From assembly GCA_964434165.1 (NCBI GenBank), contig CAYSUS010000060.1, positions 1 to 43,606 of the forward strand: a DNA stretch of 43,606 nucleotides, read 5' to 3'. A model generated the notes under the pieces. It was not told the DNA's origin. It saw only the letters and a program-made list of their open reading frames with translations, and searched no databases. A program made the translations under genes and the position numbers. This DNA comes from an uncultured Pirellulales bacterium (GTDB lineage: Bacteria > Planctomycetota > Planctomycetia > Pirellulales > Thermoguttaceae). This document shows, one piece after another, positions 5,056-25,473 of this stretch (within the stretch, counting starts at the first letter, position 1; each line of letters starts with the position of its first letter).

Positions 5056-5388
5056 ATGCTGCGACGGTTGTCCACCCTGCTGCTGGTCGGTCTGGCTCTG
5101 GTGATCGGCGCCACTTCGGCGTCCGCGTTCCCGGACAAGAAGAAGGACGGGAAGAAGCCGAAGAAGACGGTTGAGGAGCGCTTCAAGGCGCTCGACAAGG
5201 ACGAGAGCGGCGACCTGACCCTCGAGGAGTTCCTCGCGCCCATCAAGAAGGATGAGGCCAAGGAGAAGGCCAAGGAGGTCTTCAAGAAGAAGGACAAGAA
5301 CGGCGACGAGAAGCTCACGCTCGAGGAGTTCAAGGGCGGCAGGAAGAAGGACGGCAAGAAGAAGGACGGCAAGAAGAAGGACGCCTAG
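5056..5388 (+). CDS. Small secreted EF-hand calcium-binding protein, Lys/Asp-rich.
   Basis: Signal peptide MLRRLSTLLLVGLALVIGATSASA. Two canonical EF-hand loops, DKDESGDLTLEEF and DKNGDEKLTLEEF. C-terminus is built from (G[KR]KKD)x3 repeats. Confidence 0.75.
   Translation: MLRRLSTLLLVGLALVIGATSASAFPDKKKDGKKPKKTVEERFKALDKDESGDLTLEEFLAPIKKDEAKEKAKEVFKKKDKNGDEKLTLEEFKGGRKKDGKKKDGKKKDA
5338..5382 (+). repeat. 3 x 15-nt in-frame tandem repeat (ggcaRgaagaaggac) encoding G[RK]KKD x3 at the C-terminus of the EF-hand protein.
   Basis: Direct reading of the sequence at 5338-5382. One mismatch in the first unit. Confidence 0.6.
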
Positions 5389-9146: not shown

Positions 9147-12100
9147 ATGAGCGCACGCATTCGTTGCCCGGACTGCGGACGAACCTTCGAGGTAGCGCGC
9201 GATCGCCGCGGCGGCCTGTTGCGCTGTCCGCACTGCGCGCGGGCCTCGACCATCGATTCGCCCTCGTGCGCCTCCGAGGAGACGGCCGGCACGCTCCCGA
9301 TTGCCGATTCGATGGAGACGGCTCCTCCCGCTCCGGGGCTGGCAACGCCCGCATCGACGATGGCCGAATCGGGGCTTCACGTCGGGCGGTTTCGGATCGT
9401 CGGGCGTCTGGGAGCCGGGCAGTTCGGCGTGGTGTATCGGGCCCACGACCCGCTTCTCGACCGGTCGGTCGCCTTGAAGGTCCCGCATCCTGGGCGCTTC
9501 GAGAGCGAGAAGGACCGGCTTCGCGCGCTGCGCGAGGCCAAGGCCGCGGCCCAGCTCCGCCATCCACACGTGGTGCCCGTCTATGAAGCCGGAGGCGAAG
9601 GCGACCGGTTCTACATCGCGGCGGCCTTCGTCGAAGGGCGGACCCTGGAGGAGCTGGCCGAGCAACGCCCCCCCGATCCGCGACGTGCGGCCACGATCGT
9701 CAGGCAACTGGCCGACGCCCTGGACTACGCGCACCGGCGGGGAGTGGTGCACCGCGACGTGAAGCCGGGCAACGTGATGATCGACGTTCAGGGCGAGCCG
9801 CAGTTGATGGACTTCGGCCTGGCACGGCTCGATCGCGGCGAGGAGCAGCTCACGCAGGACGGGACCCTCCTGGGCACGCCCGCCTACATGTCGCCCGAAC
9901 AGGCCCGGGGCGAGCACCACCGCGTGGGGCCGGCGAGTGATCAGTACGCGCTGGGGGTGGTTCTCTTCCGGTTGCTGACGGGCAGGGTGCCGTTTACCGG
10001 CGGGCTGACCTCGGTCGTCTTCCAGGTGCTGCACCGCGAGCCCCCGCGACTGCGAGCGCTCCATCCCGGCGTGCCCCGCGATCTGGAGACGATCTGCCTG
10101 AAGGCCATGAGCAAGCAGCCCGAGGCACGGTACGCCGACTGCGGCGCGCTGGCCGAGGACCTCCGCCGCTGGCTGGCCGGCGAGCCGATTCGCGCGCGGC
10201 GCGTGGGGCCGGCCGAGCGCCTGCTGCGTTGGGCGCGGCGGAACCCCGCCGTCGCGTCGCTCAGTGCGGCGGTCGCCACCGCGCTGGTGGTCGTGGCGAT
10301 CGTGGCAGGGACGGCATACGTCGTCACGTCCCGGTCCCTGGCAGAGGCCGAGACTCGTCTGTACTTCAGCAGGGTGGCGCTGGCCTGGCAGAAGTGGGAG
10401 TCGGGCGAAGTCGATCAGGCTGAAGCCATCCTCGAGGCCTGTCCGCCCAACCGCCGTCACTGGGAATGGGGATTCCTCAAGCGACTGTGCCACCTGGAGG
10501 AGCGGGTCTGGGAGGGACATCGCGCCAAAGTGGTCGCGCTGGCCGTGGACCGCGAGGGACGGCAGGTTGCCTCGGCTTCGGCCGACGGCACGGTCAGGCT
10601 CTGGGACCTTGGGTCGCACAGGTGCGAAGGCACTTTCACGCCGCACCCCGGCGAGGCCACCGCCGTGGTCTTCCTGGAGCGCGGGGACCGTCTCGCCTCG
10701 GCCGGGGCCCGCGGGGAAGTGAGGATCTGGAAGCCCGAGCCGGGATCGGCGTCGGGCGGATTCGGGGAAGCACGGGGCGTGCGGTGCGAGGGGCACACCG
10801 GCCGGGTGAACGACCTGGCCGCCAGCCCGAAGGGCGACCTGCTGGCCTCGGCCGGCCAGGACAAGACGGTCCGGGTGTGGGACGCGGCAAGCGGGTCCTG
10901 CCTTCACGTCTTCGCCGAGCACACGGGCGGGGTGGGCGCCGTGGCGTTCAGTCCGAACGGGGTGGAGGTCGCGTCGGGCGGGGCGGACGGGGCGATCCGC
11001 GTCTTCAGCGCCCGCGACGGGTCCCAGCCGCGCACGCTCGCGAGCACGGCGAGCCCCATCCGATGCCTCGGTTTCAGCCCCGACGGCCAGAAGGTCGCCG
11101 GCGGCACGCTGGACGGCACGATCGCCGTCTGGGAGGTGGCCAGCGGCACGCGGGCGATGGTGCTTCAGCGACCGGGCGAGGACGTCGGCGAATTGGCCCT
11201 GGCTGCGGAGGGCGCGGCCCTGGCCGCAGCAAGCGCCGTGGCCTTCAGCCCCGACGGCCGGCTGATCGCCACGGCCGCCCCGGACCGCACCGTTCGCGTG
11301 TGGGAGGCGGCCAGCGGTCGCGAGATCGCCGTGCACCGGGGCCACGCGGCGACCGTGCTGGCCCTGGCGTTCACCCCGGACGGCGAGCACCTGGTCTCCT
11401 CGGGATGGGACGGCACGCTGCGCCTATGGGATGCCGACGACGACGGGGAGGCCGAAACGCTTCGCGGACATTCACACTATGTGGCGTACGTGGCGTTCAG
11501 CCGCGACGGGGCGCGACTGCTCTCGACCGCCTACGACGGGTCGGCCGTGGTGTGGGACGTGGCCTCCGAGCGTCCCGTGACCGTCTTCCGGAAGCACGAG
11601 GGCGAGGTGAACAGCGGTGCCTTCAGCCCCGACGGCCGGCTGGCGGCCACGGCCGGGTCGGACAAGACGATCCGGCTGTGGGACGCGGCGTCGGGTCGCC
11701 AGAACGGCGTGCTGCGGGGACATGGCGGACTGGTGCAGGACGTGGCGTTCAGCCCCGACGGACGCTTGATCGCCTCGGCCGGGTACGATGGGACCGTCAA
11801 GCTCTGGGACGTGGAGCAGCGGATCGAGCTGCGGACGCTCACCGGTCACGAGGATCACGTGAACAGCGTGGCCTTCGCTCCCGACGGCCGGCGCCTGGCG
11901 TCGGGCAGCCACGACGGCTCGGTCCGCGTGTGGCAGGTCGCGACGGGCGCGGAGCTTCTGACGGTCGAGCACGAAGGCTGGGTGGCCAGTGTGGCGTTCA
12001 GCCCTGACGGCGACCGCCTGCTCTCGGGCGGCCACGATCTGGCGGTCCGCGTGTGGGACGCGGAGGACGGCTCGCCTCGGTGCGTCCTGCGGCACGGGGC

Positions 12101-12329
12101 GTGGGTCTCGGCGGTCTGCGCCAGCGGCGACGGCGCGCGATACGTGTCGTGCGACTGGGCCGGCAGCGTGCACGTGTGGAGCGCCCGCGAGGGACGCGAG
12201 CTGCTGGCCGTGCCCGCCCATCCTCATCGCGTCTCCTGCGTGGCGATGAGTCCCGACGGAACGTGGATCGCCACGGGCGGGCTGGATCGTTGCGTGCGGC
12301 TCTGGAAGGCGGAACGGTCCGGCTGGTGA
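9147..12329 (+). CDS. Hanks-type Ser/Thr protein kinase with N-terminal Zn-ribbon, one TM helix and C-terminal WD40 beta-propeller repeats (about 14 blades).
   Basis: Internal ATG at 9147. Zn-ribbon MSARIRCPDCGRTFEVARDRRGGLLRCPHCARAS. Kinase motifs GAGQFGVVY, VALKV, HRDVKPGN, DFGLAR, APE. TM segment AVASLSAAVATALVVVAIVAGTAYVV. Repeated GH..V....FSPDG....S.G.DGT[VI]R[VL]WD units with WD/WE dipeptides. Confidence 0.9.
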   Translation: MSARIRCPDCGRTFEVARDRRGGLLRCPHCARASTIDSPSCASEETAGTLPIADSMETAPPAPGLATPASTMAESGLHVGRFRIVGRLGAGQFGVVYRAHDPLLDRSVALKVPHPGRFESEKDRLRALREAKAAAQLRHPHVVPVYEAGGEGDRFYIAAAFVEGRTLEELAEQRPPDPRRAATIVRQLADALDYAHRRGVVHRDVKPGNVMIDVQGEPQLMDFGLARLDRGEEQLTQDGTLLGTPAYMSPEQARGEHHRVGPASDQYALGVVLFRLLTGRVPFTGGLTSVVFQVLHREPPRLRALHPGVPRDLETICLKAMSKQPEARYADCGALAEDLRRWLAGEPIRARRVGPAERLLRWARRNPAVASLSAAVATALVVVAIVAGTAYVVTSRSLAEAETRLYFSRVALAWQKWESGEVDQAEAILEACPPNRRHWEWGFLKRLCHLEERVWEGHRAKVVALAVDREGRQVASASADGTVRLWDLGSHRCEGTFTPHPGEATAVVFLERGDRLASAGARGEVRIWKPEPGSASGGFGEARGVRCEGHTGRVNDLAASPKGDLLASAGQDKTVRVWDAASGSCLHVFAEHTGGVGAVAFSPNGVEVASGGADGAIRVFSARDGSQPRTLASTASPIRCLGFSPDGQKVAGGTLDGTIAVWEVASGTRAMVLQRPGEDVGELALAAEGAALAAASAVAFSPDGRLIATAAPDRTVRVWEAASGREIAVHRGHAATVLALAFTPDGEHLVSSGWDGTLRLWDADDDGEAETLRGHSHYVAYVAFSRDGARLLSTAYDGSAVVWDVASERPVTVFRKHEGEVNSGAFSPDGRLAATAGSDKTIRLWDAASGRQNGVLRGHGGLVQDVAFSPDGRLIASAGYDGTVKLWDVEQRIELRTLTGHEDHVNSVAFAPDGRRLASGSHDGSVRVWQVATGAELLTVEHEGWVASVAFSPDGDRLLSGGHDLAVRVWDAEDGSPRCVLRHGAWVSAVCASGDGARYVSCDWAGSVHVWSAREGRELLAVPAHPHRVSCVAMSPDGTWIATGGLDRCVRLWKAERSGW

Positions 12330-12363
12330 CCGTTCGCAATCGGGCCCCGTCTTCCACGGGGGC

Positions 12364-12392
12364 TTGACCCGTTACCCAGCCAGAGCTAGCAT
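12364..12392 (+). promoter_or_regulatory. Sigma-70-like promoter candidate upstream of the TM2 gene (TTGACC-N17-TAGCAT).
   Basis: TTGACC at 12364-12369, 17-nt spacer, TAGCAT at 12387-12392, about 60 nt upstream of the ATG at 12452. Sequence match only. Confidence 0.3.
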
Positions 12393-12451
12393 CCGCGTGT
12401 GGGGGATCGCCCCGGTGCCTGCCTCACCCTCCCCAGCCGGGAGCTCACCGA

Positions 12452-12865
12452 ATGAACTGCCCGAATTGCGGCGGCAATGTTCCGCCCGGCGTGAACCGAT
12501 GCCTCAAGTGCGGCAGTTTCGTGGAGCAGCAGGCACCGCCCCCGCCGCAACCGGCTTACGCCCCGGTCGCTCAGGTGGTGATGCAGGCGCCCATGCCGGT
12601 GCAGCCGGCGGCGGTGCCCATGACGCCCGAGAAGTCGCGGATCGCCGCGGGCCTGTTGGCGATCTTCCTGGGGGCGTTCGGCATCCACAACTTCTACCTG
12701 GGCAATGTCGGGATCGGCGTGACGCAGCTCTTGCTGACTCTGCTGGTCAGCTGGTTCACGTGCGGCCTCAGCGCGATGGTGGCGGGGATCTGGGCGCTGG
12801 TTGAGGGCATTCTTCTGTTGGTCGGCGGGATCAACCGGGATGGAGAGGGCCGGCCCCTCAAATAG
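12452..12865 (+). CDS. Zn-ribbon + TM2-domain membrane protein.
   Basis: N-terminus MNCPNCGGNVPPGVNRCLKCGSF has two CxxC pairs. A Pro/Ala-rich linker follows. C-terminal KSRIAAGLLAIFLGAFGIHNFYLGNVGIGVTQLLLTLL...GIWALVEGILLLVG matches the TM2 domain (PF05154) consensus. GGGAG RBS 8 nt upstream. Confidence 0.8.
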   Translation: MNCPNCGGNVPPGVNRCLKCGSFVEQQAPPPPQPAYAPVAQVVMQAPMPVQPAAVPMTPEKSRIAAGLLAIFLGAFGIHNFYLGNVGIGVTQLLLTLLVSWFTCGLSAMVAGIWALVEGILLLVGGINRDGEGRPLK

Positions 12866-13162
12866 CCGCCGCGCCGGCCCGCGGTGGGTGGCTTGCGCGC
12901 CTTCGCGTGGTGCGCGGCCCGGGGGCGGTGTAAGGTCTCGCACTCCCATGTGAAGACCACTTGACGACTCCGACTGGACGTTCTGGCTGCGCACCCCGGA
13001 TGAGGGGCGGGTTGAAAAACGTTCACTGCGGGGCTAGTCTATTTGGGTTCCGATGCGACCTTCCGGGAGAGGTCCTTCCGGGCGGGGAGGCCTTCGGCCT
13101 GGGAGCGGCGCATCGCCGGTGGGGGTCTCCCCGGTTGCGACCTCGGGAAGGAGGGCGTCGTC

Positions 13163-13957
13163 ATGAACCGTGCTTCGGGGATCACGCTTTTCTGGCTCGT
13201 GCTGCTCGGTGCGGCCGCCGTGGCCCTGACGGTCAGCACGTTCTACGCCTTCGTTCTCCCGGATCATCGCGGGCCGACGTTCGTCTCCGTGATCGCCTCG
13301 ACCTGCGTGGCGGAGATTGTTCTCTTCGGCTACGCGGCCTACTTCCTGACGGTGCCCCACACGGTCAAGCGTCCCAGTCCGGCCGTGCGCATGCAGATCC
13401 TCGTGCTGGTGGTGATCTGGTTTTTCATCGTGCTGGTGACCGGCGCGGTGGCGGTGCACCCCACGCTTTCGGATACGTTCTACAGCGACAAGATCCTGGT
13501 GTTCCAGTCGATCCTCACGTTCCTCATGCTGGCAGGGGCGTTTTTCCTTCACCGGCAGGACGTGGTCCTCCAGGTCCGCGAGGAGGCGCCGCAGCAGAGC
13601 CGCGTGCGCCTTCAGTCGTTCGCCGGCGGTGTGGACGCCCTGATGGATACGCTGCGGAGCCTGGCGGGCCAGAGGCCGGCCCAGGCCGCCGAGATCGAGC
13701 GGCTCACCAAGCGGCTGGACACGCTGAAGACCCAGTTGCTCTCGGTCTCGCCCGTGGCCGAGCGGGAGCCGGAGCGGAAGGTGGAGCCCCTGTCGGACGA
13801 GGAGATCGTCGAAGGCCTGAAACAATTGCACCAGAGCGTGGCGGGGTTGAGCTCCGCCGGCGACGAGCAGATCGAGAACCGGCTGGCCTCCGTGCGGCGG
13901 GAGCTGGACGCCTTGAGCGGCCTCTTGCGCCGCCGCGAGGACGTCCTCACCTTTTAG
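13163..13957 (+). CDS. Integral membrane protein (4 TM) with C-terminal coiled-coil region; no known domain.
   Basis: Internal ATG at 13163 preceded by GGAAGGAGG RBS. Four hydrophobic helices in the first 150 aa, then heptad-like segment (AEIERLTKRLDTLKTQLL..., ENRLASVRRELDALSGLL). Confidence 0.6.
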   Translation: MNRASGITLFWLVLLGAAAVALTVSTFYAFVLPDHRGPTFVSVIASTCVAEIVLFGYAAYFLTVPHTVKRPSPAVRMQILVLVVIWFFIVLVTGAVAVHPTLSDTFYSDKILVFQSILTFLMLAGAFFLHRQDVVLQVREEAPQQSRVRLQSFAGGVDALMDTLRSLAGQRPAQAAEIERLTKRLDTLKTQLLSVSPVAEREPERKVEPLSDEEIVEGLKQLHQSVAGLSSAGDEQIENRLASVRRELDALSGLLRRREDVLTF

Positions 13958-14063
13958 CCAGCCGCCCGTCCGGCCCCCCGCGGCGCCGGCAAGACGAAAG
14001 ACCACGAAGGAACGCGCGAGCTTCCCTCGCCCAGCCCTCGACCGTACCGAAGGACAACGTGCC

Positions 14064-15032
14064 ATGCCGTGGAAAGTCATCGAGTTCCAGGATCCGACGG
14101 GCGAGGTCATGGTCGCCCGCGTGCCCCCGGAAGGAACGGCGGAGCTCGTCTCCGGATCGCAGTTGGTCGTGCAGGACGGGCAGATCGCCGCCTTCTTCCA
14201 CGACGGCAAGCCGACCGACGGATTCCGCGCCGGCCGCTTCACGCTGAGCACGCAGAACCTACCCGTCTTGAGCAAGCTCCTCCGCCTGGCCACGTTGAGC
14301 CGGTCGCCATTTCGCTCATGCGTGTACTTCGTGGCGCTGAAGACGTTCACCAACCTGGGCTGGGGGACGCCCACGCCGATTCTGTTCCGCGACTCGGAGT
14401 TCCGCATGGTCAACCTCCGCGCGCACGGCGCGTTCGCCGTGCGCGTGGCCAACCCGAAGGTCTTCCTCCACACCGTCGTCGGCACGCAGGGCGTGCAGAC
14501 GACGTTCGAGCTGCAGGACTACCTCCGCAAGATCCTCGTCGCGCGGTTCGCCAAGGTGCTTCCCGAACTGCTCTCCTCGGTCCTCGACCTTCCGCAGTTC
14601 TACGAGGAGATCGCCTCGCGCGTGAAGCGGGCCGTCTTCGAGGACTTCCAGCAGTACGGCGTCGAGCTGGTGGACCTGTTGATCGAGGCCATCACCCTGC
14701 CCCCGGACGTCCAGGACGCCATCAATCGCGCGACAGGCGTGCGCGCGGTGGGCCAGGACGAGGTCGGGCATTACGAGCGCGTCCGTCGGGCCGACGCGGT
14801 GTCGGATGCGGCGAAGACGCCGGGCAGCGACGTCGCGGGAGGCCTCGCCGCGGGACTGGGCCTGGGCGCCGGCATGCAGGTGGCCGGGCAGATGGCCGGG
14901 CCATCGGGCGGCGCCCCGAGCGTGGAGGAAGTGAAGGCCCGGCTCCGCGAGCTCAAGGGGCTGGTTGACGAGGGGCTGATCACCCAAGAGGACTTCGAGG
15001 CCAAGAAGAAGGACCTTCTGGCGAGGCTCTAG
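14064..15032 (+). CDS. SPFH/band-7 superfamily protein of the COG4260 type with C-terminal SHOCT domain.
   Basis: N-terminal 230 aa align to the COG4260 consensus (membrane protease subunit, stomatin/prohibitin family: ...VIEF.D..GEV...R.P..G...I..GSQL.V...Q.A.F...GK..D.F..GR.TL.TQNLP.L..L...). The C-terminal SVEEVKARLRELKGLVDEGLITQEDFEAKKKDLLARL matches the SHOCT domain. A Gly/Ala linker separates them. Confidence 0.75.
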   Translation: MPWKVIEFQDPTGEVMVARVPPEGTAELVSGSQLVVQDGQIAAFFHDGKPTDGFRAGRFTLSTQNLPVLSKLLRLATLSRSPFRSCVYFVALKTFTNLGWGTPTPILFRDSEFRMVNLRAHGAFAVRVANPKVFLHTVVGTQGVQTTFELQDYLRKILVARFAKVLPELLSSVLDLPQFYEEIASRVKRAVFEDFQQYGVELVDLLIEAITLPPDVQDAINRATGVRAVGQDEVGHYERVRRADAVSDAAKTPGSDVAGGLAAGLGLGAGMQVAGQMAGPSGGAPSVEEVKARLRELKGLVDEGLITQEDFEAKKKDLLARL

Positions 15033-15152
15033 ACGTTGAGCGGAGTAAGCGAGGTGACCGCGGCCGCGGGGCCGGCGCGCAAGCGGCGCCAACCCCCGGC
15101 GGTCCCGGGACCGCGCGAGTTGCTCCAAGCGCTTCAAGGAGACACCTGTCGG

Positions 15153-17462
15153 ATGCGCCGAGTCGGGCCCATGCTGAGCGGCACGCTTGGGATCGCCGTG
15201 ATCCTTGCGGCGGCAGTCTCGCTGGCCGAACAGACCCCCGCGTCTCCTCCGTCGCGCATCCCCACGCTGCCCGAGCTTCCCCCCGGCGTCGGTGCGAAGG
15301 GACCTCGGATCGCGACCGTGGCGCTCAACCGGCGCCCGGGCTACTGCTCGACCATCGCGCTCGGCTCGCCTGCCGTTCCGCCCGACGGATTCGCCTACAT
15401 GAACCTCCAGGGCGTGGTGCTGGGCGTGGTCGTCAGCAACCCCTCGGACCAGCCCGCCCACGGCCGTCTCGCCGTCAAGATGATCGATCCGGGCGGTGGT
15501 CAGCCGTTCCACGAGTCGCGTTCCGTGGCGCTGAAGGCGAAGGAATCGACGACGCAGTTCTTCTCGGTGGCGACCGGGCCCCGCCTGCCGCTGGTCTCCG
15601 CGCCGGTGCGGACCGGGGCGTGGAAGGGGACCGTGACGCTGGACAACGCGCTTGCGCCGCGCGAGCCTCCCGAGGTCCGCGCCTTCGAGCTCTTCGTGGA
15701 GGATCCCTCGCGGCCTTCGGCGGGAACGCGGGAGCCCGCGGCGCTGGGGCGCGTGCGCAAGTGGGATCCTCCCGATCTGGGTCGGCGGTTTCCCGACCTG
15801 GCGCGGTACGAACGGGCCATGCGCGTTCTCGACGGGATCATGCTTCTCCTGGCCGCGCGGGCCGGGAGCCGTGCGGGCCTGCCCAAGGACGCCGACGCGC
15901 CGCTGTGGGAGACGGCGACCGACGACTTCCTGGGCACGGCCGACGCGGCCAACCGCGCGGCGATGACCTCGGCCACGATCCGCATCGAGCCCGGGGCGGC
16001 GGTCGAGGGCCGTCGCAAGGTGGCCCTCCGCTGGAAGAACGAAGAGCGGGGCGTGCTTGCCAAGGACGGTCCCCTGCGCGTGCGCAACTGCTTCGACCGG
16101 GCGGTGCTGACCCTGTCCGTTCCGTCAGGCATCGAGCTCATCGACCAGCCTTCAGGGCTCGCCGAGACCGCCGACGATTCCGGGACGGGGCGTCGGGTCC
16201 TGGCGATCGTGGAGAGCTTCGTCGATAAGCGGCTGGTGCCCGACGAGGAGCACCTCACGACCTTGACGCTCGACGAGTCCGAGTTCGAGTCGGACGACGG
16301 CTACACGCTGATGGCCCAGGTGCAGTTGCAGTTCGGACCGTTCGGTCGGCCGCTGGGCGAGAAGCCTCTCGCCGAGCGGCCGGCGCCGCTGGAGGTCCCC
16401 GGCATGGCCGTCTATGACTACCGCCGCTGGCTCGACCGGCCGGACGACGTTTACTGGTACGTCGTGTCGGCCGCCTCGGCCGAGGCCGCGGTCGAGGCGG
16501 CCGACCCCGCCGGCGCCGAGATCGTGGTCAACCCGGGGAGGCTGCCCGAGCTGTCGGTGCCCGACGACGAGGCGTCCGGCGCGGAAGGGATGCTCGACAT
16601 CGTCTTCTGCATCGACACGACCGGCTCGATGGCCGACGACATCCAGGCCGTGCAACAGGCCTCGCAACAGATCCTCGACCGCTTCGAGGATTTCTCGGCC
16701 AGGGCCGGGATCAGTTTCCAGGTGGGCCTGGTCACGTACCAGGACCACACCGACGCGGAGACGTTCAAGGGCCAGCCCGAGGAGGCGTGGCTCCAGGCCT
16801 GGCCCCTTTCGGCCGACTCGCGCACGGTCCGCGACAACATCCTCGCGATCCGCATCAACCGCAAGGCCGTGGGCGGGGACATCCCCGAAGACCTGTTCGC
16901 CGCCCTGATGTGCGCCATGGATGCGCGTCCCGACTGGGAGGGCAAGCCCGTGCGCATGGGCTGGCGCGACGGCGCGGCCAAGATCGCCCTGGTCATGTGC
17001 GACGCGCCGCCGCACGACCCGGACTTCGAGGGCCGCACGCTGGCCGACGTGGCCCGACGGGCAGAGGAGCTCGACCCGGTTCACGTGTATCCGCTGATCC
17101 TGCCCGGCTCGGGCCCGGCCCTGCTCGATCCGACCGTGGCGGCCATGAAGCGGCTGGCCGAGGCCACGAAAGGCGAGACGACGAGCGTGTCGGGGGCCAG
17201 CGAGCTGCCCGAGGCCATTGTGCTCACGGTCCAGCGCGCGGTGGAAACCCACAGGCTCGAGGTCTGGCGGCGGGAGAACCCGCCGTATGCGCTCTTCTGC
17301 GCGGTCGGCGCGATCAGCGCCCTGGCGATCCTGGCACTGGCCGGGGCCACGTACGCGCAGCTCCGCCAGCGCCGCCGGCAGGCCGAGCCGTCCGCGGCCC
17401 GGGCGGACGACCGCGAGCTGACCGGCCAGTCCATGCGCCTCCCGCCCGAGCGCCCCGCCTGA
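15153..17462 (+). CDS. von Willebrand factor A (vWA) domain protein with N-terminal signal peptide and C-terminal TM anchor. Start uncertain: TTG 15036, ATG 15153 or ATG 15171.
   Basis: vWA/MIDAS-like block DIVFCIDTTGSMADDIQAVQQASQQIL...GLVTYQDH... Signal-like MLSGTLGIAVILAAAVSLA. C-terminal hydrophobic YALFCAVGAISALAILALAGATY followed by RQRRRQ. The TTG at 15036 lies 4 nt after the SPFH stop. Confidence 0.7.
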   Translation: MRRVGPMLSGTLGIAVILAAAVSLAEQTPASPPSRIPTLPELPPGVGAKGPRIATVALNRRPGYCSTIALGSPAVPPDGFAYMNLQGVVLGVVVSNPSDQPAHGRLAVKMIDPGGGQPFHESRSVALKAKESTTQFFSVATGPRLPLVSAPVRTGAWKGTVTLDNALAPREPPEVRAFELFVEDPSRPSAGTREPAALGRVRKWDPPDLGRRFPDLARYERAMRVLDGIMLLLAARAGSRAGLPKDADAPLWETATDDFLGTADAANRAAMTSATIRIEPGAAVEGRRKVALRWKNEERGVLAKDGPLRVRNCFDRAVLTLSVPSGIELIDQPSGLAETADDSGTGRRVLAIVESFVDKRLVPDEEHLTTLTLDESEFESDDGYTLMAQVQLQFGPFGRPLGEKPLAERPAPLEVPGMAVYDYRRWLDRPDDVYWYVVSAASAEAAVEAADPAGAEIVVNPGRLPELSVPDDEASGAEGMLDIVFCIDTTGSMADDIQAVQQASQQILDRFEDFSARAGISFQVGLVTYQDHTDAETFKGQPEEAWLQAWPLSADSRTVRDNILAIRINRKAVGGDIPEDLFAALMCAMDARPDWEGKPVRMGWRDGAAKIALVMCDAPPHDPDFEGRTLADVARRAEELDPVHVYPLILPGSGPALLDPTVAAMKRLAEATKGETTSVSGASELPEAIVLTVQRAVETHRLEVWRRENPPYALFCAVGAISALAILALAGATYAQLRQRRRQAEPSAARADDRELTGQSMRLPPERPA

Positions 17463-17609
17463 AAAAAACACCACGAGAAGGACAAGACCTGTCGGCGCTT
17501 TCGCCCACCGCGATCCGCGGCCTTCGTTTCGCGGCGAGCGAGCCGCCCGTCGGGAGGAGAGACGGACTGACCCGCGTGATGCATCCTTGGACCCCGGGAG
17601 GTGATGCCC

Positions 17610-18134
17610 ATGATCCGCGTCGTATGCCCCAATTGCTCTTCGCAGTTCGACACCCAGGACATGTATGCCGGGCGGACGGCGAACTGCCCCCAGTGCGGGA
17701 CGCAGCTCACGATCCCGCAGGCCCCGACGGCGTCGTCGGGTTTCTCGCCGGGCGGCGGCCCGCCGCCCATGCCCGGCTACGCCCCGCAGACGCCGTCGTC
17801 GGCCGGGGCCACGTACTACCCCCCGAACAAGCAGCCGGGCGTGGCCCTGGCCGGCATGATCTGCGGGATCGTGGGATTCGTGCTCTCATTGATCTCCGCG
17901 ATTCCGTGCATTGGCTGTTTCACGCTATTGCTTGCCGGCCCGACGGCCCTGGCCGGCGTGATTTGCAGCGTCATCGGCCTGATCCTCTCCAAGAAGCGGG
18001 GCCAGAAGATGACGTATTCGATCGTCGGGCTGTCGCTCTCGATCCTGGCGATCATCTGGGCTCCGATCGTCTACTTCCTGATCCTCGGCGCGCTGGGCGC
18101 GGGCGGAGCCTTCATGGATCCGAGCATGTTCTGA
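17610..18134 (+). CDS. Zn-ribbon + DUF4190 membrane protein. Alternative GTG/ATG start at 17601.
   Basis: MIRVVCPNCSSQFDTQDMYAGRTANCPQCGTQLTIP (CPxC...CPxC ribbon). Pro-rich linker. C-terminal double hydrophobic hairpin GVALAGMICGIVGFVLSLISAIPCIG...LAGVICSVIGLILSKKRGQK...IVGLSLSILAIIWAPIV typical of DUF4190 (PF13828). GGGAGG RBS 9 nt upstream of ATG 17610. Confidence 0.7.
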   Translation: MIRVVCPNCSSQFDTQDMYAGRTANCPQCGTQLTIPQAPTASSGFSPGGGPPPMPGYAPQTPSSAGATYYPPNKQPGVALAGMICGIVGFVLSLISAIPCIGCFTLLLAGPTALAGVICSVIGLILSKKRGQKMTYSIVGLSLSILAIIWAPIVYFLILGALGAGGAFMDPSMF

Positions 18135-18207
18135 TCGCCCCCAACACGGAACGCCGCGCGGCGACGGTCGTCGCGCCGGCGCGATCCCCCGACGACAAGG
18201 TGGAATC

Positions 18208-19737
18208 ATGATTCAGGTAGCGTGCCCCAGTTGCGGGGCCCAGTTCCAGACCCAGGAGATGTACGGCGGGCAGATGACCCTCTGTCCTGCCTGCCGCCGC
18301 CCTTTGACCATTCCGAGCGTCGCCCAGGGCCCGCCCGCCGCGGCCCCCGCCTCGGACCCGGCGCCGGCCTGCGTCTCGGCCCCCGGCTCGCAGGGCCACG
18401 GCGGGGCGGCCATCGCGGCCTTCGTGTGCGGCCTGCTGGCGTTGATCTTCTCCTTTGTCGCCCTGGTTCCATGCGTGGGACTGCTGGTGATCCCCTTCGG
18501 CCTCCCCTTGGTGCTGGCCGCCGTGATCTGCGGGATCATCGGCCTGGCGACCGCCAAGAGCCAGAATCGCAAGAGGTCGCTCGCCGCCACGGGGCTGGTC
18601 CTGGGCGTGGTGGCTCTCCTGTGGGCGCCGATCCTGCTGGTGTTGATCATGGGCGGCCTGTTGGGCCTCAGCTCGGCGACGACGGCGTCGCTGCCTGGGG
18701 CCGACGCGCCGCGATCCCGAACCGCGACGGCGCGTGCGAGCGAAGCGCCCAGGCCCGGTTCGGACCGCAAGCGGCCCGAACCCACGCCCCGCACCGACTT
18801 CCCCAAGCCCGGCAGCGAAGCCCCGCGGCCCGCCACCGGCACGAAGCCTCCGACCTCCAAGGGGCCGGGCAGCGCCGAAACGTCCGACGGGAGCCCGATG
18901 GCCCGCGCGCTGGGCACGGCGCCTTCGCGATCCACGGCGCCCCGCACCTCATCCCGAGAGTATGACCGGGACGCGAGGATCGCGGACCTTTTGAAGCGCG
19001 AGCCGCCAAAGAAGCCCGAACCCGAACCGGAGCCCAAGCCCGAGCCCGTCGAGCGGCCCACGGTGGTGCGCACCGAGGCCGATCTGGACCGCGCCCTGGC
19101 CGCCCTGGAGAGCCAGCGGGTCCTGGACGTCAGGCTCACGAAGCAAGCCGTGGGCGACGACCGGCTTCAGAAGCTCCGCGACTGGGTCGCGCAGGGAGGA
19201 ATCCTCTGGACCGACACGGACCTGGTACGTACAGACTACGCGAGCCGCGACGATGGCTTCGGTTTCCTGATGATCTCGGCGCCGCGCGACCAGGTCAGCG
19301 GCGAGGTCTTCGTGCGCCGCGGGTCGCCCTCGCACCCGGTCGTTGAGGACCTCGGCGAGACGGTGGGCTACGAGCTCTCCGACTGCGAGCTTCTGATCAC
19401 GGTGCCGATCGATGCGCGGGGGCAGATCCCCGACGACATCGCGCCGCTGCTCGGATGGCCGCCCGAAAGGGGCCGCCGCGCCCTGCGCGTGGTGTCGGCC
19501 CTGCGAAGTTTCGGCCGCGGTCTGGTCGCGTACATGCCGCGACGGATCACCCCGCAGGACGCGGCCGAGACGTTCGCCGAGAATCTGCGCGAGTTCAGTT
19601 TTCGCGCGGCCGCGCGGGGGGAGAGGGGCCCGTCCGGTGTGCTTCAACCATCGCCGGGACGCCGCCGCCCCAACCCCATGGAGAGCGAGCGGCCCACGCG
19701 GTCGCCGCGACGTGCTCCCAGCCGGCGGTCGCGCTGA
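18208..19737 (+). CDS. Zn-ribbon + DUF4190 membrane protein (paralogue of 17610..18134) with a 330-aa cytoplasmic C-terminal extension of unknown function.
   Basis: MIQVACPSCGAQFQTQEMYGGQMTLCPACRRPLTIP, then a DUF4190-like TM hairpin (AIAAFVCGLLALIFSFVALVPCVG...). Followed by a low-complexity Pro/Ala/Ser/Arg segment, a (PE)n/KPEP linker (19021-19050) and a 200-aa globular-looking tail (WVAQGGILWTDTDL...). AAGGTGGA RBS. Confidence 0.7.
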   Translation: MIQVACPSCGAQFQTQEMYGGQMTLCPACRRPLTIPSVAQGPPAAAPASDPAPACVSAPGSQGHGGAAIAAFVCGLLALIFSFVALVPCVGLLVIPFGLPLVLAAVICGIIGLATAKSQNRKRSLAATGLVLGVVALLWAPILLVLIMGGLLGLSSATTASLPGADAPRSRTATARASEAPRPGSDRKRPEPTPRTDFPKPGSEAPRPATGTKPPTSKGPGSAETSDGSPMARALGTAPSRSTAPRTSSREYDRDARIADLLKREPPKKPEPEPEPKPEPVERPTVVRTEADLDRALAALESQRVLDVRLTKQAVGDDRLQKLRDWVAQGGILWTDTDLVRTDYASRDDGFGFLMISAPRDQVSGEVFVRRGSPSHPVVEDLGETVGYELSDCELLITVPIDARGQIPDDIAPLLGWPPERGRRALRVVSALRSFGRGLVAYMPRRITPQDAAETFAENLREFSFRAAARGERGPSGVLQPSPGRRRPNPMESERPTRSPRRAPSRRSR

Positions 19738-19743
19738 GAGCCG

Positions 19744-20244
19744 ATGCGGCGATTGCTCCCAGGAGACACCCCAAGGATTCCGCCTGCCAGTACGATGGAG
19801 CCCAGCCGCCCGGAACCCGTCCTTACGCCCGTCGCGTCTCTCGGCGCGACGACGGATCGCTGGTACGCCCTGACCAACCTGGCGATCGCGGTCTTCCTGG
19901 TTGTCCTGCTGGCCCTGGCGGCGATCGCGCGGATCGAGGGCGATGGGCTGGTGCTGTTCGGCCGCACGATGCCTGAAACGTGCTTCTGGCGGCTGGTGTT
20001 CCACCGGCCTTGCGCGGGCTGCGGCACCACGCGGAGCGTGGTGCTCGCTCTGCATGGCCGCTGGGGCGAGGCGCGGGCCATGCACCCGGCGGGGGTCTGG
20101 GTGCTCGGGTATCTCGTGTTTCAGTTGGCCGCCCGCCTGACGCTGTTGGCAGTGCGGCCCCGCGGGCCGACGGTTGCCGGGGTCGATCTCGCGCTCTCCG
20201 TGGGGCTTCTTCTTGGGGCGTGCTACATCCCGCTCTTCCTGTGA
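19744..20244 (+). CDS. DUF2752-family membrane protein. Possible alternative start at ATG 19795.
   Basis: TM helix (LTNLAIAVFLVVLLALAAIA) followed by CFWRLVFHRPCAGCGTTRS, the C..C-G-T-R signature of DUF2752 (PF10825). Two further TM helices. ATG 19744 is 7 nt after the stop of the preceding gene. Confidence 0.65.
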   Translation: MRRLLPGDTPRIPPASTMEPSRPEPVLTPVASLGATTDRWYALTNLAIAVFLVVLLALAAIARIEGDGLVLFGRTMPETCFWRLVFHRPCAGCGTTRSVVLALHGRWGEARAMHPAGVWVLGYLVFQLAARLTLLAVRPRGPTVAGVDLALSVGLLLGACYIPLFL

Positions 20245-20355
20245 CGGGGTCGAGAGCGTCCCGATTGGCGCCCGGGGCCTGGAGGACTAGGATGGCCTGT
20301 AGGTTGGGGCGGAGCGTGGGAACACCCTTCACCGGCTTCTCCGGAAACCGCGGCG

Positions 20356-20919
20356 ATGGAGACGACGCGCGCGAGCCTGCTGCTGCGTATCCGCGACTTG
20401 CAGGACAAGGCAAGCTGGGAGGAGTTCGTCGGCATCTACGGTCCGTTTCTCCTCCGCGTGCTGCGGCGTCATTCCGTTCCGGCCGACGACTCCATGGACA
20501 TGGTCCAGGAGACGTTCCAGGCCGTGGCCGCCAACATCGGCGAGTTCCAGTACGACGCGGGGCGTTCGTTCCGGAAGTACCTGGCCACGATTGCGCTGCG
20601 CAAGGCGTGGAACCTCCTGCGCGCGAAGCAGTGCCGGCCGGCGGCCCTGGGCGGGAGCGACCAGTACCAGGCCATCCAGCAGCTCCGCGGCGAGGTCGTG
20701 GACGAGGAATGGTACCGGCGGCGCCTGGAGATGGCCATCGAGCGTGCCCGCGCGCGGTTCGGCGAGCTCGAAGGGCAGGTCTTCGAGATGGCCGATCTGG
20801 AAGGGGTGCCCGACCGCCAGATCGCCGAGCGGCTCGGAATCGACGTCGGCTACGTCTATGTCTGCAAGTCGCGGGCACGCAAGAAGGTCCGCGTGGCGCT
20901 GGAGGAGGGCGATGAGTAG
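20356..20919 (+). CDS. ECF-type RNA polymerase sigma-70 family factor.
   Basis: 187 aa. Region-2-like (FVGIYGPFLLRVLRRH...DMVQETFQAV) and region-4 HTH (LEGVPDRQIAERLGIDVGYVYVCKSRARKKVR). Typical ECF size. Confidence 0.85.
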   Translation: METTRASLLLRIRDLQDKASWEEFVGIYGPFLLRVLRRHSVPADDSMDMVQETFQAVAANIGEFQYDAGRSFRKYLATIALRKAWNLLRAKQCRPAALGGSDQYQAIQQLRGEVVDEEWYRRRLEMAIERARARFGELEGQVFEMADLEGVPDRQIAERLGIDVGYVYVCKSRARKKVRVALEEGDE

Positions 20920-23509
20920 CGAGCCGCTCGGGGCCGCGGGCTGTCCCGCCACCGACACGCTGCGCCGCGTGGCGGCGGCCGAGGCCCCGCCCGGCGAGGA
21001 GTCGCAGGTCCGAGACCACCTGAACGGCTGCGCCGCGTGCCGGGAACGTTTCGAGAGGGCGCTGGGCACAACCGCCGAGTACTTCGCCCTGCCGGACGAG
21101 AACGTCGAGCTGACGGCCGAGGAGCTTCGCGAGCTCAGCTCGCGATGTCTGCCTTTAGGGGTGAACGCCCTGCAGCGGGAAGACGGTGTCGAGCTTGCCG
21201 ACGGCCTGGGTCTGCCGCCCCCGCGAGGGCGGCCCTTCCTGGCTCGGCTCGGGCCGTACGACGTGGTTTCCGTGCGGGGCAAGGGCGGGATGGGCCTAGT
21301 GCTTAAAGGTTACGACTCGGCTCTACAGCGTTACGTGGCCTTGAAGGTGATGCTTCCGTCCCTGGCCAGGGACGAGGCGGCGCGGTGCCGATTCCTTCGC
21401 GAAGCACGGACCGCGGCCGGCCTCCGCCACGCGAACGTGGTGGCCGTGCATGCGGTCCATCACGACGCCGACCCGCCGTATCTGGTGATGGAGTACGTGG
21501 CCGGGCGCTCGCTGGCCTCGTTGCTGGCGGCCGAGCCCCTGCCGACCCCGCAGCAGGCCGCGGAAGCGGTCCGCCAGGTGCTGCTTGCGCTGGAGCACGC
21601 GCACCAGCAGGGGGTGATCCATCGCGACGTCAAGCCGGCCAACGTGCTGGTGGAGGAAGGGAGCGGGGCCGTCAAGCTGGTGGATTTCGGGCTCGCCCGG
21701 GCCGTGGCCGAGGCCGCGCGCCTCACCGCCGAAGGCATGGCGATGGGCACCCCCTGGTACATGGCCCCGGAGCAGGCCCGGGGCAGCGAGCACCCCGACG
21801 GGCGCAGCGACCTGTTCTCGGTGGGCGTGCTGCTCTTTGAGATGCTCTCCGGGACCGTCCCCTTTCCCGGACGCGACCCCCACGAGGTGATGTTCCGCCT
21901 CGCGACGGAGGACGCCCCGGACGTGCGCGCGCGAAGCCCCGAGGTGCCCGAGGCGATGGCCGCGATCGTGCGCCGCGCCCTCCGGCGGGATCCGGCGGCG
22001 CGGTACGCATCGGCGTCGGCGTTTCTCGAGGCGTTGGACGCGTTCCTCGCCGCGCCGAACCGGCCGCAGGGCGCGGCCGTGGACGGGCCTCCGGCCGCGC
22101 CCGTCGCGGGGCCGCCCCCGGCGACGTCCTGCATGCGCGTGATCCTGGAAGTCGCGAAAGGGCCGCTTGCGGGGCGCTGTTTCGAGTTCGATCGTCACGA
22201 CACCCTCGTGGTCGGCCGTTCGAAACGGGCCCAGCTTCGGATCGCCGCCGACCCCTACTTCTCGCGGCACCACTTCATGATCGAGGTCAATCCGCCCCGC
22301 TGCTTCCTTCGCGATCTGGGGAGCACGAACGGCACCTTCGTCAACGGCCAGAAGCTCGGCCAGGCCCACCTCGGCGATGGCGACGTGGTTCACGGGGGGC
22401 GGACCGAGATCCGCGTGCGCGTCGCCGGCGCGACTCCGATCGGTCTCGCCGAGGGGCTGCGGTCTGCGCCCCCCACGGCCGGCCGCGTGCGCGCCGACAT
22501 GGACGCGGTGCCGTTGGGCACCTTCGCGCCCCGGCCCGACCCGACATTGCGCTGCCGGCAATGCGGCGCCCCCGCGCGGGAAGCCGCCGTCGCCGGGCTC
22601 GCGCAGACGGGCCTGGTCGCTTACGCGTGCCGCCGGTGCCACGAGAAACACTGCGACGCCGGTCATCCGGTGGTGGATTACGAGGTCGCGCGCGTGGCGG
22701 GACACGGCCCCCTCGGGCCGATCTGCGAGGCGCGGCGCGTCTCGACGGGCACCGCCGCGACCCTCCGCGTACTGCCGCCGCACATGACGTCCAGTCCCCA
22801 GGCGGTTGACATGTTCCTTCGGCAGATGCGCCTGGGGGCCCAGTTGCGCCACCCGAACATCGTCCCCGTTTTGGAAATGGGGCAGTCGGGCGATACGTTC
22901 TGGATCGCCACGGAGCACGTCGCCGGGATCGACGCCGGGCAGTTGGCCGGGCAGCCCGGCGGATCGCTCGCGCCCGGCGACGCCGTGCCGATCGCCATGC
23001 AAGTGCTCGAGGCTCTCGACTACGCGCACGGCCTGGGGCTCGTCCATCGCGACGTCAAGCCAACCAACGTGTTCGTCTCGGGCGGCCCCGGCGCGCGGCT
23101 TGCCCGGCTCGCCGACTTCGCCTTGATGCGGGCGATCGACGACGCCGGCCTGAGCGGGATCACGCGTGAGGGGGAGTGCCGGGGCACGGTCGCCTTCATG
23201 CCGCCGGAACAGGTGCTAAGGAGCCGCCAGGCCACGCCCGCCTGCGACGTGTACGGCGCGGGGGCGACGCTCTACTGGCTCCTCACGGGCCACCCGGCCT
23301 ACGACTTCGAGGCCCGAGACGCCCGTGGCGAGCCCAAAGACCCCTTCCTGGTCATCCTGGAGGACCCCGTCGTCCCGCTGCGCCGGCGCAATCCGGCCGT
23401 ACCGGCGGCCCTGGCCCAGGTCGTGGAGAAGGCCCTCGCGCGCGAGCCCGCCGATCGCTACCGCTCCGCCCGGGCGATGCAGCAGGCCCTGGCGGGGCTG
23501 GGCTATTGA
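20912..23509 (+). CDS. Multidomain signalling protein: ZAS-type anti-sigma N-terminus, active Hanks Ser/Thr kinase, FHA domain, Cys4 Zn-ribbon, and a second degenerate kinase-like domain (likely pseudokinase).
   Basis: ATG 20912 overlaps the sigma stop by 8 nt (GATGAGTAG). N-terminus carries H-x3-C-x2-C (DHLNGCAAC), the ZAS anti-sigma zinc motif. Kinase 1 is intact: GKGGMG, VALKVM, HRDVKPAN, DFGLAR, APE. FHA block VVGRS...HHFMIE...LRDLGSTNGTFVNGQKL. CRQCG...CRRCHEKHC ribbon. Kinase 2 keeps GHGPLG and HRDVKPTN but has ATLRVL (Arg in place of beta3 Lys) and DFA in place of DFG. Confidence 0.85.
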   Translation: MSSEPLGAAGCPATDTLRRVAAAEAPPGEESQVRDHLNGCAACRERFERALGTTAEYFALPDENVELTAEELRELSSRCLPLGVNALQREDGVELADGLGLPPPRGRPFLARLGPYDVVSVRGKGGMGLVLKGYDSALQRYVALKVMLPSLARDEAARCRFLREARTAAGLRHANVVAVHAVHHDADPPYLVMEYVAGRSLASLLAAEPLPTPQQAAEAVRQVLLALEHAHQQGVIHRDVKPANVLVEEGSGAVKLVDFGLARAVAEAARLTAEGMAMGTPWYMAPEQARGSEHPDGRSDLFSVGVLLFEMLSGTVPFPGRDPHEVMFRLATEDAPDVRARSPEVPEAMAAIVRRALRRDPAARYASASAFLEALDAFLAAPNRPQGAAVDGPPAAPVAGPPPATSCMRVILEVAKGPLAGRCFEFDRHDTLVVGRSKRAQLRIAADPYFSRHHFMIEVNPPRCFLRDLGSTNGTFVNGQKLGQAHLGDGDVVHGGRTEIRVRVAGATPIGLAEGLRSAPPTAGRVRADMDAVPLGTFAPRPDPTLRCRQCGAPAREAAVAGLAQTGLVAYACRRCHEKHCDAGHPVVDYEVARVAGHGPLGPICEARRVSTGTAATLRVLPPHMTSSPQAVDMFLRQMRLGAQLRHPNIVPVLEMGQSGDTFWIATEHVAGIDAGQLAGQPGGSLAPGDAVPIAMQVLEALDYAHGLGLVHRDVKPTNVFVSGGPGARLARLADFALMRAIDDAGLSGITREGECRGTVAFMPPEQVLRSRQATPACDVYGAGATLYWLLTGHPAYDFEARDARGEPKDPFLVILEDPVVPLRRRNPAVPAALAQVVEKALAREPADRYRSARAMQQALAGLGY

Positions 23510-25344: not shown

Positions 25345-25423
25345 CGGATTCCTCCCCGTCGTCCCGGTCGCCGAGCCCCAACTCAGACCCACATAGGTCC
25401 TACCCCCGAACGGCAGCGACCTT

Positions 25424-25473
25424 ACATACCTGTCTCGGCGCGTTCCTCACATACCTGTCTCGGCGCGTTCCTC
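25424..25473. repeat. Perfect tandem duplication, 2 x 25 bp (acatacctgtctcggcgcgttcctc), in the 5' region of the WG-repeat gene. Followed by a 2 x 9 bp tandem (ctccgcccg, 25481-25498).
   Basis: Read directly from the sequence. Each unit contains GGAAC on the strand of the downstream (minus-strand) gene. Confidence 0.7.

Follow-up and report, generated by a model that had tools for sequence, protein, structure and literature searches.

The stretch of DNA analysed here (the window; 43,606 nucleotides from an uncultured Pirellulales bacterium) carries, at positions 12452-20244, seven consecutive genes on the plus strand, g1 to g7, which belong to a real and apparently undescribed module that includes a soluble protein of the SPFH family, g3. 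With a probability of roughly 0.55, the module is considered to encode an SPFH membrane complex that resembles the YdjGHI proteins of Bacillus subtilis, is built with a new partner set, is organized in an operon-like manner and serves in membrane or envelope homeostasis. This reading draws on gene conservation and gene order, on family memberships, on the absence of a transmembrane (TM) segment from g3 and on predicted folds. To our knowledge, SPFH proteins are universal organisers of membranes, and their bacterial clients are mostly unknown. The genes of the cluster and their products are as follows.

12452-12865, plus strand: g1, 137 residues; N-terminal zinc ribbon, Pro/Gln-rich linker and TM2 domain
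13163-13957, plus strand: g2, 264 residues; four TM helices and a helical bundle, without a Pfam family
14064-15032, plus strand: g3, 322 residues; Band_7_1 SPFH domain, Gly/Ala-rich linker and C-terminal SHOCT domain; soluble
15171-17462, plus strand: g4, 763 residues; signal or anchor segment, extracytoplasmic region ending in a vWA domain, C-terminal TM segment and short tail
17610-18134, plus strand: g5, 174 residues; MJ0042-type zinc ribbon, Pro-rich linker and multi-TM region
18208-19737, plus strand: g6, 509 residues; paralog of g5 with a 360-residue extension
19795-20244, plus strand: g7, 149 residues; DUF2752 membrane protein with a CxxC-G-x-T-R motif

Reading frames were chosen by third-position G+C, with the listing of open reading frames (ORFs), homologs and exact matches to deposited gene calls as a check, and the seven consecutive same-strand genes proposed in an earlier note on this DNA were confirmed in this way. 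The intergenic gaps measure 57-297 nt, rather than the 7-300 nt given in that note. The call for g1 matches the deposited one exactly, the start of g2 at 13163 is fixed by homologs and by the deposited call (a longer ORF from 13043 has no homolog support), the start of g7 was taken from the deposited call, and for g4 the deposited start at 15171 was used, an ATG at 15153 being also possible. The G+C content is approximately 70% across the window, with an even composition and no GC anomaly over the cluster. The products had been described as almost only small and membrane-anchored, which holds in part, as g3 lacks a TM segment and neither g4 nor g6 is small. When the domains named for them were checked with hidden Markov models, TM2, Band_7_1 together with SHOCT, vWA and DUF2752 passed the Pfam cut-offs, while DUF4190 failed. 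No NCBIfam model matched g1-g7, and the window in its entirety gave no Rfam or tRNA hit.

The gene order was followed in related loci, numbered with an L, that were collected from two starting points. Searches seeded on g3 consisted of five context look-ups of homologs at 51-64% identity and then one genome per GTDB species, which added 25 loci from Pirellulales, Thermoguttaceae, Phycisphaerae, Sedimentisphaerales, Brocadiia, Hydrogenedentota, Anaerolineaceae, Acidobacteriota, a 'Proteobacteria' metagenome-assembled genome (MAG) and Fibrobacterales. Searches seeded on g2 comprised a metagenome scan and context look-ups. Profiles built from the window proteins were run over the six-frame ORFs of the loci; because all loci were seeded on g2 or g3, free-standing copies of the other genes lie outside the sample. 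In the g3-seeded set, g2 immediately precedes the SPFH gene in 24 of the 26 distinct loci with upstream sequence; in one exception (L026) it lies approximately 2.9 kb upstream, past one ORF, and in the other (L030) it is absent. In the g2-seeded set, the SPFH gene comes next after g2 wherever downstream sequence is available; in L040 the two are swapped. Altogether, g2 stands beside the SPFH gene in approximately 37 informative loci from Planctomycetota, Hydrogenedentota, Acidobacteriota, Chloroflexota and others, and the gap between the two genes is 11-18 nt in most of the called loci. An exhaustive profile search of 1.84 billion representatives found only 93 clusters of the g2 family at 50% identity, almost all of them approximately 264 residues long, and wherever the surroundings of this rare gene could be read, an SPFH gene was found no more than approximately 3 kb away.

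Around this pair the composition of the module varies. Orthologs of g1 lie directly upstream of g2 in approximately 24 loci, and in approximately six others (L002, L003, L012, L027, L029, L033) that position is taken by a 342-residue double zinc-ribbon membrane protein, which is accompanied by a DUF2085 protein where Pfam annotation is available (L002, L003). The full six-gene order of TM2, g2, SPFH, vWA-anchor, zinc-ribbon-TM and DUF2752 genes is present in 11 other loci (L001, L006, L008, L009, L014, L015, L035, L037, L046, L050, L051). The DUF2752 gene stands last in the module in all of these and in L004 and L016. The triad of g1, g2 and g3 occurs alone in many loci (L005, L011, L017, L020, L021, L023, L025), and in L002, L003, L007 and L016 the vWA gene is present without DUF2752 or DUF2752 without vWA. 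Pfam annotation downstream of the triad-only loci revealed unrelated genes (capsid-like, TraT, DUF1800 and LOG-like) and no hidden alternative extension. The module is thus hierarchical, consisting of a near-obligate pair of g2 and the SPFH gene, a usual third member of zinc-ribbon/TM2 type, and an optional extension of vWA-anchor, zinc-ribbon-TM and DUF2752 genes, and not the even assembly of seven that had been proposed.

The central claim of the earlier note, that of a dedicated module rather than a random neighbourhood, stands, in that dozens of unrelated contigs show this gene order and the adjacencies g1-g2, g2-g3, g3-g4 and g5-like-g7 are all conserved outside this genome. Its view that the module is undescribed also agrees with what was found: the searchable literature yielded no description of it and no paper linking TM2, DUF2752 or DUF4190 with SPFH proteins, and g2 is without a Pfam or NCBIfam model.

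The SPFH protein g3 is a member of the Band_7_1/YdjI-type SPFH family. Pfam assigns it to Band_7_1 (PF13421, COG4260) with 185.5 bits against a cut-off of 24 (E 1.3e-54) and to SHOCT with 34.6 bits against 27 (E 1.5e-8); its match to PF01145 is weak and that to PF13421 strong. A Kyte-Doolittle scan, which is a simple method and not a dedicated topology predictor, found no hydrophobic TM segment in g3. Its AlphaFold2 (AF2) model, with a predicted local distance difference test (pLDDT) value of 74, resembles stomatin, HflK/C, prohibitin, flotillin and QmcA (Foldseek E 1e-9 to 1e-6), and the linker at residues 251-283 has a pLDDT below 50. Searches against PDB sequences gave nothing meaningful for g3 or for g4. 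The B. subtilis protein YdjI (P0243), which carries PF13421 and a zinc ribbon, is 23% identical to g3 over 230 residues (E 1e-13). Unlike YdjI, g3 ends in a SHOCT domain, which follows its low-complexity linker. The presence of SHOCT where COG4260 proteins have a zinc ribbon was earlier regarded as an oddity; SPFH with SHOCT is a known variant and the commonest SHOCT architecture (PMC3581485).

SHOCT-like domains are predicted to anchor proteins at the inner leaflet of the membrane (PMC11237479), which is consistent with docking through the flexible C-terminal part of g3. Proteins of a sister group (L004, L016 and hits P0076-P0116) have a C-terminal GYF_2 domain (DUF4339) in place of SHOCT. 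GYF domains bind proline-rich peptides. Pro-rich linkers follow the zinc ribbons of g1 and g5, and, together with the GYF_2 domain of the sister group, they suggest a mode of docking.

The near-obligate partner g2 has four TM segments by hydropathy scan, and the 135-residue C-terminal part that follows them is probably cytoplasmic. In its AF2 model (pLDDT 77), helices at residues 5-31, 33-63, 73-97 and 106-170 precede a helical bundle of approximately 130 residues, and the last helix of the four-helix membrane bundle runs on into this predicted cytoplasmic bundle. The usual third member, g1, matches TM2 (PF05154) with 50.8 bits against a cut-off of 27.9 (E 1.9e-13) and, weakly, a zinc ribbon. 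An alignment of its orthologs shows that the CPxC...CxKC motif, the linker and the TM2 motifs are conserved. Searches of PHROGs with the cluster proteins gave only TM2- or SHOCT-type matches, to phage families of unknown function.

Among the extension proteins, g4 combines a constant with a variable part. Its vWA domain scores just above the Pfam cut-offs (VWA_4, 31.8 bits against 27; VWA, 24.8 bits against 23.8), and TM segments were located by hydropathy scan at residues 46-64 and 752-770 of the 808-residue ORF. The metal-ion-dependent adhesion site (MIDAS) motif reads D-T-T-G-S, and all nine aligned members that bear a vWA domain have D-x-[ST]-G-S, the only motif to which this comparison refers. 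The constant part of the family consists of an HRxEVWRxxHPPYLLY stretch, a TM helix and the tail motif D[PS]xL[TS]G; short homologs (277-305 residues) comprise this constant C-terminal part alone, and long ones add the vWA domain and variable N-terminal regions. Several homologs have signal peptides, which places the vWA domain outside the cytoplasm. A departure from this pattern is a 1937-residue homolog (L003:11052-16865), in which PEGA repeats accompany the g4 vWA region outside the membrane, and an FHA domain after the C-terminal TM segment replaces the tail motif.

The paralogs g5 and g6 are 37% identical over the N-terminal 160 residues of g6, and the 360-residue extension of the latter is made up of a Pro-rich linker and a C-terminal domain that has no Pfam or PDB match. 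Their earlier description as two paralogous zinc-ribbon/DUF4190 proteins is borne out with respect to paralogy and falls short with respect to DUF4190 (PF13828), which is sub-threshold in g6 (19.7 bits against 35, E 7.4e-4) and was not detected in g5 even at E 0.1, g5 having zinc-ribbon matches only. A protein in a related locus (L015:6056-6526) has a sub-threshold DUF4190 match similar to that of g6, and resemblance of g5 and g6 to this family is plausible, that of g5 being judged by its likeness to g6, with membership not established. Because a related locus (L046) has a single protein at the g5/g6 position, 47% identical to g5, g6 is taken to be a local, lineage-specific duplicate with an added C-terminal region. 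In most genomes, the g5 position is occupied by a second zinc-ribbon/Pro-rich/TM2-like protein, which has only the MJ0042-type zinc ribbon in common with g5 and g6; the DUF4190-like g5 and g6 are lineage-specific replacements of it. An iterated g5 profile drifted onto any protein with the same zinc ribbon and was used only with manual inspection. The last gene of the module, g7, matches DUF2752 (PF10825) with 48.8 bits against a cut-off of 27 (E 7.3e-13).

One MJ0042-type zinc ribbon (h-x-h-x-C-P-x-C ... G-x4-C-P-x-C-G) begins four proteins of the window. It is encoded in the kinase gene upstream of g1 (9147-9250), in g5 (17610-17720), in g6 (18208-18320) and in a gene for a zinc-ribbon/WG-repeat protein at 23635-25446 on the minus strand (25200-25345, minus strand), the last of which has two copies of the ribbon. 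It may represent a shared docking module or may simply be a ribbon that is common in the phylum.

The cluster is flanked on the same strand by signalling genes, and a promoter match precedes it:

9147-12329, plus strand: kinase/WD40 protein with zinc ribbon, Ser/Thr kinase domain, TM segment and WD40; directly upstream of g1
12364-12392, plus strand: sigma-70-like promoter match TTGACC-17-TAGCAT, 60 nt upstream of g1
20356-20919, plus strand: extracytoplasmic function (ECF) sigma factor (g8), TIGR02937
20912-23509, plus strand: kinase/FHA protein with two kinase domains, FHA, zinc ribbon and N-terminal HxxxCxxC

The bracketing of the cluster on the same strand by two zinc-binding Ser/Thr kinases and an ECF sigma factor, as claimed in the earlier note, was confirmed. 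Pfam recognizes Pkinase and WD40 in the upstream protein and Pkinase in two stretches together with FHA in the downstream one, and the sigma factor matches TIGR02937 with 72.6 bits against 42.9. The sigma factor and kinase/FHA genes overlap by 8 nt, and the translated kinase/FHA protein carries an N-terminal HxxxCxxC motif, HLNGCAACRERF, that resembles zinc anti-sigma domains. The promoter match is the only one of sigma-70-like type in 12200-21000 (1 against 0.2 expected) and is a consensus match only. The entire block recurs in the same order in two overlapping metagenome contigs of 69% G+C (L046 and L047), with protein identities of 45-70% from kinase/WD40 through kinase/FHA. A full-length ortholog of the kinase/WD40 protein (49-51% identical) lies upstream of TM2 in both, and in L046 the sigma factor ortholog (69% identical) follows DUF2752 by 27 nt and is accompanied by a kinase/FHA ortholog (52% identical). 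Beyond the two kinases, the genes of these contigs bear no relation to the flanks in the window, and taken together, these findings argue for a functional link in this lineage.

Outside these two contigs, the ECF sigma factor was not found in any of the loci, and a Ser/Thr kinase gene was found no more than a few kb away in only 6 of approximately 22 planctomycete-type loci, which is at most a mild enrichment in kinase-rich genomes; kinases were accordingly rejected as general components of the module. The scattered kinases beside the module in L009, L014, L007 and L028, and the FHA tail in the one g4 homolog, are weak hints in such genomes. The general phospho/sigma control envisaged in the earlier note is thereby reduced to a lineage-specific add-on, the bracket recurring gene for gene only in L046 and L047; in the lineage of the window, the flanking genes plausibly regulate the module.

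For the physical interactions, oligomerisation, physiological role and regulation of the module, we infer the following mechanism, for which the Bacillus system provides the template. YdjI (also SamI) is soluble and forms membrane foci that are lost upon deletion of ydjG or ydjH; YdjH interacts with YdjI, which in turn recruits PspA (PMC8581546). By analogy with YdjG and YdjH, the anchorless g3 would be recruited to the inner membrane, on its cytoplasmic side, by g2, usually assisted by the zinc-ribbon/TM2 protein g1. At the membrane, g3 would probably oligomerise into an SPFH ring or cage like those of stomatin, HflK/C, flotillin and QmcA, with its flexible Gly/Ala linker and SHOCT domain serving as a docking element near the membrane. 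In the extended version of the module, the scaffold would also organise the bitopic g4, with its predicted periplasmic vWA/MIDAS domain and cytoplasmic tail, together with g5/g6 and g7, so that the complex would extend across the inner membrane. Its most likely role would be in surveillance and homeostasis of the membrane or envelope without PspA, and, only in the lineage of the window, the upstream kinase/WD40 protein and the downstream pair of ECF sigma factor and kinase/FHA protein may regulate it.

Several observations weigh against this mechanism. Co-linearity of the genes denotes functional linkage and not a physical complex. No detectable similarity was found between g1 or g2 and YdjG or YdjH, and the recruitment model thus rests on analogy. 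A phmmer search with B. subtilis PspA found no homolog in the window or in any related locus, and PF04012 is absent from the annotated loci, so that the effector acting downstream in Bacillus is lacking. The AF2 models of g2 and g3 are of moderate confidence (pLDDT 74-77), and an experiment in the study that described SHOCT did not support oligomerisation by this domain (PMC3581485). The extension genes g4, g5 and g7 are absent from many loci and could encode clients or accessories. With respect to regulation, approximately 10 other full modules are without an adjacent kinase or sigma factor, and a shared ECF-type promoter motif sought upstream of g1, g2, g5 and g8 yielded none that was convincing.

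A bolder version of the proposed SPFH complex is doubtful. It would be a hitherto unrecognised, PspA-independent system spanning the inner membrane, in which an SPFH cage on a g2 receptor gathers TM2, DUF2752 and zinc-ribbon proteins and is coupled to the periplasm through the vWA anchor, and in which Ser/Thr phosphorylation and an ECF sigma factor read out the conserved cytoplasmic tail of that anchor, D-P-x-L-T/S-G (FHA in one lineage). Should it prove true, such a system would offer the first functional context for the TM2 domain and for DUF2752, as clients or anchors of SPFH microdomains.

Among the competing explanations, the one that survives best is a mosaic, according to which the triad is one unit, the vWA-anchor, zinc-ribbon-TM and DUF2752 genes are a second, and the kinases and sigma factor are unrelated signalling genes of the kind abundant in Planctomycetota. 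As a full account of the locus this is unlikely, and as a statement that triad, extension and regulators are separable it is partly true. Many loci carry the triad alone, some have vWA without DUF2752 or the reverse, and most lack the kinases and sigma factor. The spacing in the window points the same way: gaps of 297, 147 and 138 nt are larger than those in other loci, a weak terminator-like site follows g4, and the gap between g1 and g2 (12866-13162), which is 297 nt long as opposed to approximately 40-80 nt in most other loci, holds promoter-like hexamers of sigma-70 type (TTGAAA-N17-TAGTCT) and has no Rfam match. Against a second, independent unit, wherever g4-like, g5-like and DUF2752 genes occur in the loci, all of which were seeded on g2 or g3, they follow the SPFH gene immediately, with strand and gene order preserved; 11 other loci, spread over different taxonomic orders, show this.

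A further alternative is that the module cages or regulates a membrane enzyme, as do HflK/C with FtsH or QmcA with YbbJ, or that it is a periplasmic adhesion or assembly device of the vWA, Bat/MoxR type, rather than a stress sensor like YdjGHI. The fold predicted for g3 matches HflK/C, QmcA, prohibitin and stomatin, g4 has a canonical MIDAS motif that is predicted to face the periplasm, and one g4 homolog has PEGA and peptidase-like domains, points that would suit this alternative. However, neither the window nor the annotated loci hold a protease, NfeD, MoxR or DUF58 gene, and g3 belongs to the YdjI family, not to those of HflK/C or stomatin, and lacks the N-terminal anchor typical of such SPFH proteins, all of which renders this explanation improbable.

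Still less probable is a mobile-element or anti-phage device acting by abortive infection, in which TM2/zinc-ribbon proteins would be holin- or pore-like and would be held in check by the SPFH scaffold. TM2-domain proteins do match several phage protein families of unknown function, recombinase or transposase genes lie near two of the modules (L048 and L049), and in an Anaerolineaceae MAG the triad is followed directly by a gene for a 799-residue protein with a C-terminal Phage_capsid_4 domain (L023:11479-13875; 4e-41). None of the seven proteins, however, has a PADLOC match, a tblastn search with g3 found no match in 50,697 phage records, most loci are flanked by ordinary genes for housekeeping or glycan degradation, and the base composition over the cluster is unremarkable. 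Finally, a chance neighbourhood of small membrane-protein genes, of which the TM2, zinc-ribbon and DUF-type families are individually common, is excluded by the conservation data, as the same order recurs in approximately 40 loci of several phyla at 40-70% protein identity with unrelated flanks, and the rare g2 family keeps to its SPFH neighbour throughout.

The remainder of the window consists mostly of genes for glycoside hydrolases (GH2, GH95 and MGH1-like), a SASA esterase, a DUF6288 protein and a BBP2 porin, together with a small EF-hand protein at 5035-5388 on the plus strand. Gene content of this kind, rich in glycoside hydrolases, looks typical of glycan-degrading Planctomycetota.

The YdjGHI-like SPFH complex that is favoured here would have consequences beyond this genome. 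The module provides a defined and conserved candidate partner set, including a four-TM family without a Pfam model that hardly ever occurs away from it, for a soluble SPFH protein of the YdjI type, and it brings three unexplained domains, TM2, DUF2752 and, with a looser connection, DUF4190 or DUF2085, into a single context that can be tested. TM2 domains are present also in animals, in the TM2D proteins, and the bacterial link between TM2 and SPFH may serve as a usable lead for these.

Comparison with known systems begins with the flanking genes. Pairs of ECF sigma factor and Ser/Thr kinase are a known regulatory unit (ECF43, ECF59-62, ECF217 and others), in which kinases associate with ECF sigma factors that have no classical anti-sigma factor (PMC7826278). 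The sigma factor and kinase genes of the window resemble such pairs in that they overlap and are kept together in L046; they differ in that the kinase carries HxxxCxxC, FHA and a second kinase-like domain, and in their linkage to an SPFH module, which is seen only in the lineage of the window.

With classical SPFH cages (HflK/C-FtsH, QmcA-YbbJ, stomatin, flotillin and prohibitin), the module shares a predicted SPFH fold followed by helical segments and the idea of an SPFH oligomer that would organise the membrane proteins encoded beside it. These cages differ in sequence family, g3 belonging to PF13421, and in having an N-terminal TM helix or hairpin anchor, which g3 lacks. An NfeD partner was not found among the cluster proteins or in the annotated loci.

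More distant members of the g3 family are found in Proteobacterial Band_7_1/SHOCT operons linked to polyamine metabolism, which encode DUF350, SPFH, DUF4178, SpeD and aminopropyltransferase proteins (Ravi et al. 2024, PMC11237479). Band_7_1/SHOCT proteins encoded on Ralstonia, Novosphingobium and Paracoccus replicons (L043-L045) are 31-36% identical to g3. In Ralstonia and Novosphingobium the gene lies in such a DUF350/SPFH/DUF4178/speD/polyamine context, and in Paracoccus it lies after TelA and DUF2927 genes and before a gene for a zinc-ribbon protein. The likeness extends to the same SPFH family with a C-terminal SHOCT domain, with 31-35% identity over the full length of g3, and to co-directional genes for small membrane proteins; the difference lies in the partners, which are DUF350, DUF4178 and polyamine enzymes, without g2, TM2, vWA or DUF2752. 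The Band_7_1 SPFH family is thus repeatedly paired with small membrane and zinc-ribbon proteins.

The closest comparison is with the pspA-ydjGHI (samGHI) system of Bacillus, an operon under the control of the ECF sigma factor sigma-W (PMC8581546; bioRxiv 10.64898/2026.02.06.704340). In the Bacillus locus (L042), pspA is followed in order by ydjG (341 residues, zinc ribbon), ydjH (254 residues, TPM domain) and ydjI (323 residues). Both g3 and YdjI belong to PF13421 and are without a TM anchor, and in each a low-complexity linker leads to a small domain at the C-terminus. The two systems also agree in that three co-directional genes encode a zinc-ribbon membrane protein, a membrane protein of 254-264 residues and, last, an SPFH protein of 322-323 residues. 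An ECF sigma factor is associated with both, sigma-W controlling the Bacillus operon and an ECF sigma gene following the module in the lineage of the window. The differences concern mostly the partners. The C-terminal domain is SHOCT in g3 (GYF_2 in some relatives) and a zinc ribbon in YdjI; YdjG consists of two zinc ribbons, an NTF2-like domain and a TM segment, and YdjH carries TPM, whereas g1 carries TM2 and g2 four TM helices with a bundle; and the vWA anchor, the second zinc-ribbon-TM protein and DUF2752 have no counterpart in Bacillus. A TPM gene is absent from the window and from related loci. No similarity was found between g2 and YdjH or between YdjG and g1, g5, g6 or the 342-residue zinc-ribbon proteins, and g1, g2 and the latter were therefore rejected as homologs of YdjG or YdjH. 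The one locus with a true YdjG homolog is in a Fibrobacterales MAG (L030:9929-12403), where a more YdjI-like SPFH gene lies beside that homolog (1.7e-31) on the opposite strand, without g2, so that the two partner sets look like alternatives for related scaffolds; partner sets of Ydj type thus exist outside Firmicutes. Judged from these sequence comparisons, the module of the window resembles YdjGHI with different partners and is not counted as a member of the PspA-YdjGHI system. As a comparative-genomics hypothesis, Planctomycetota and other phyla would share the logic of YdjGHI, namely that membrane proteins from the same operon recruit a soluble SPFH protein, but would apply it without PspA and with partners that are not homologous to those of Bacillus.

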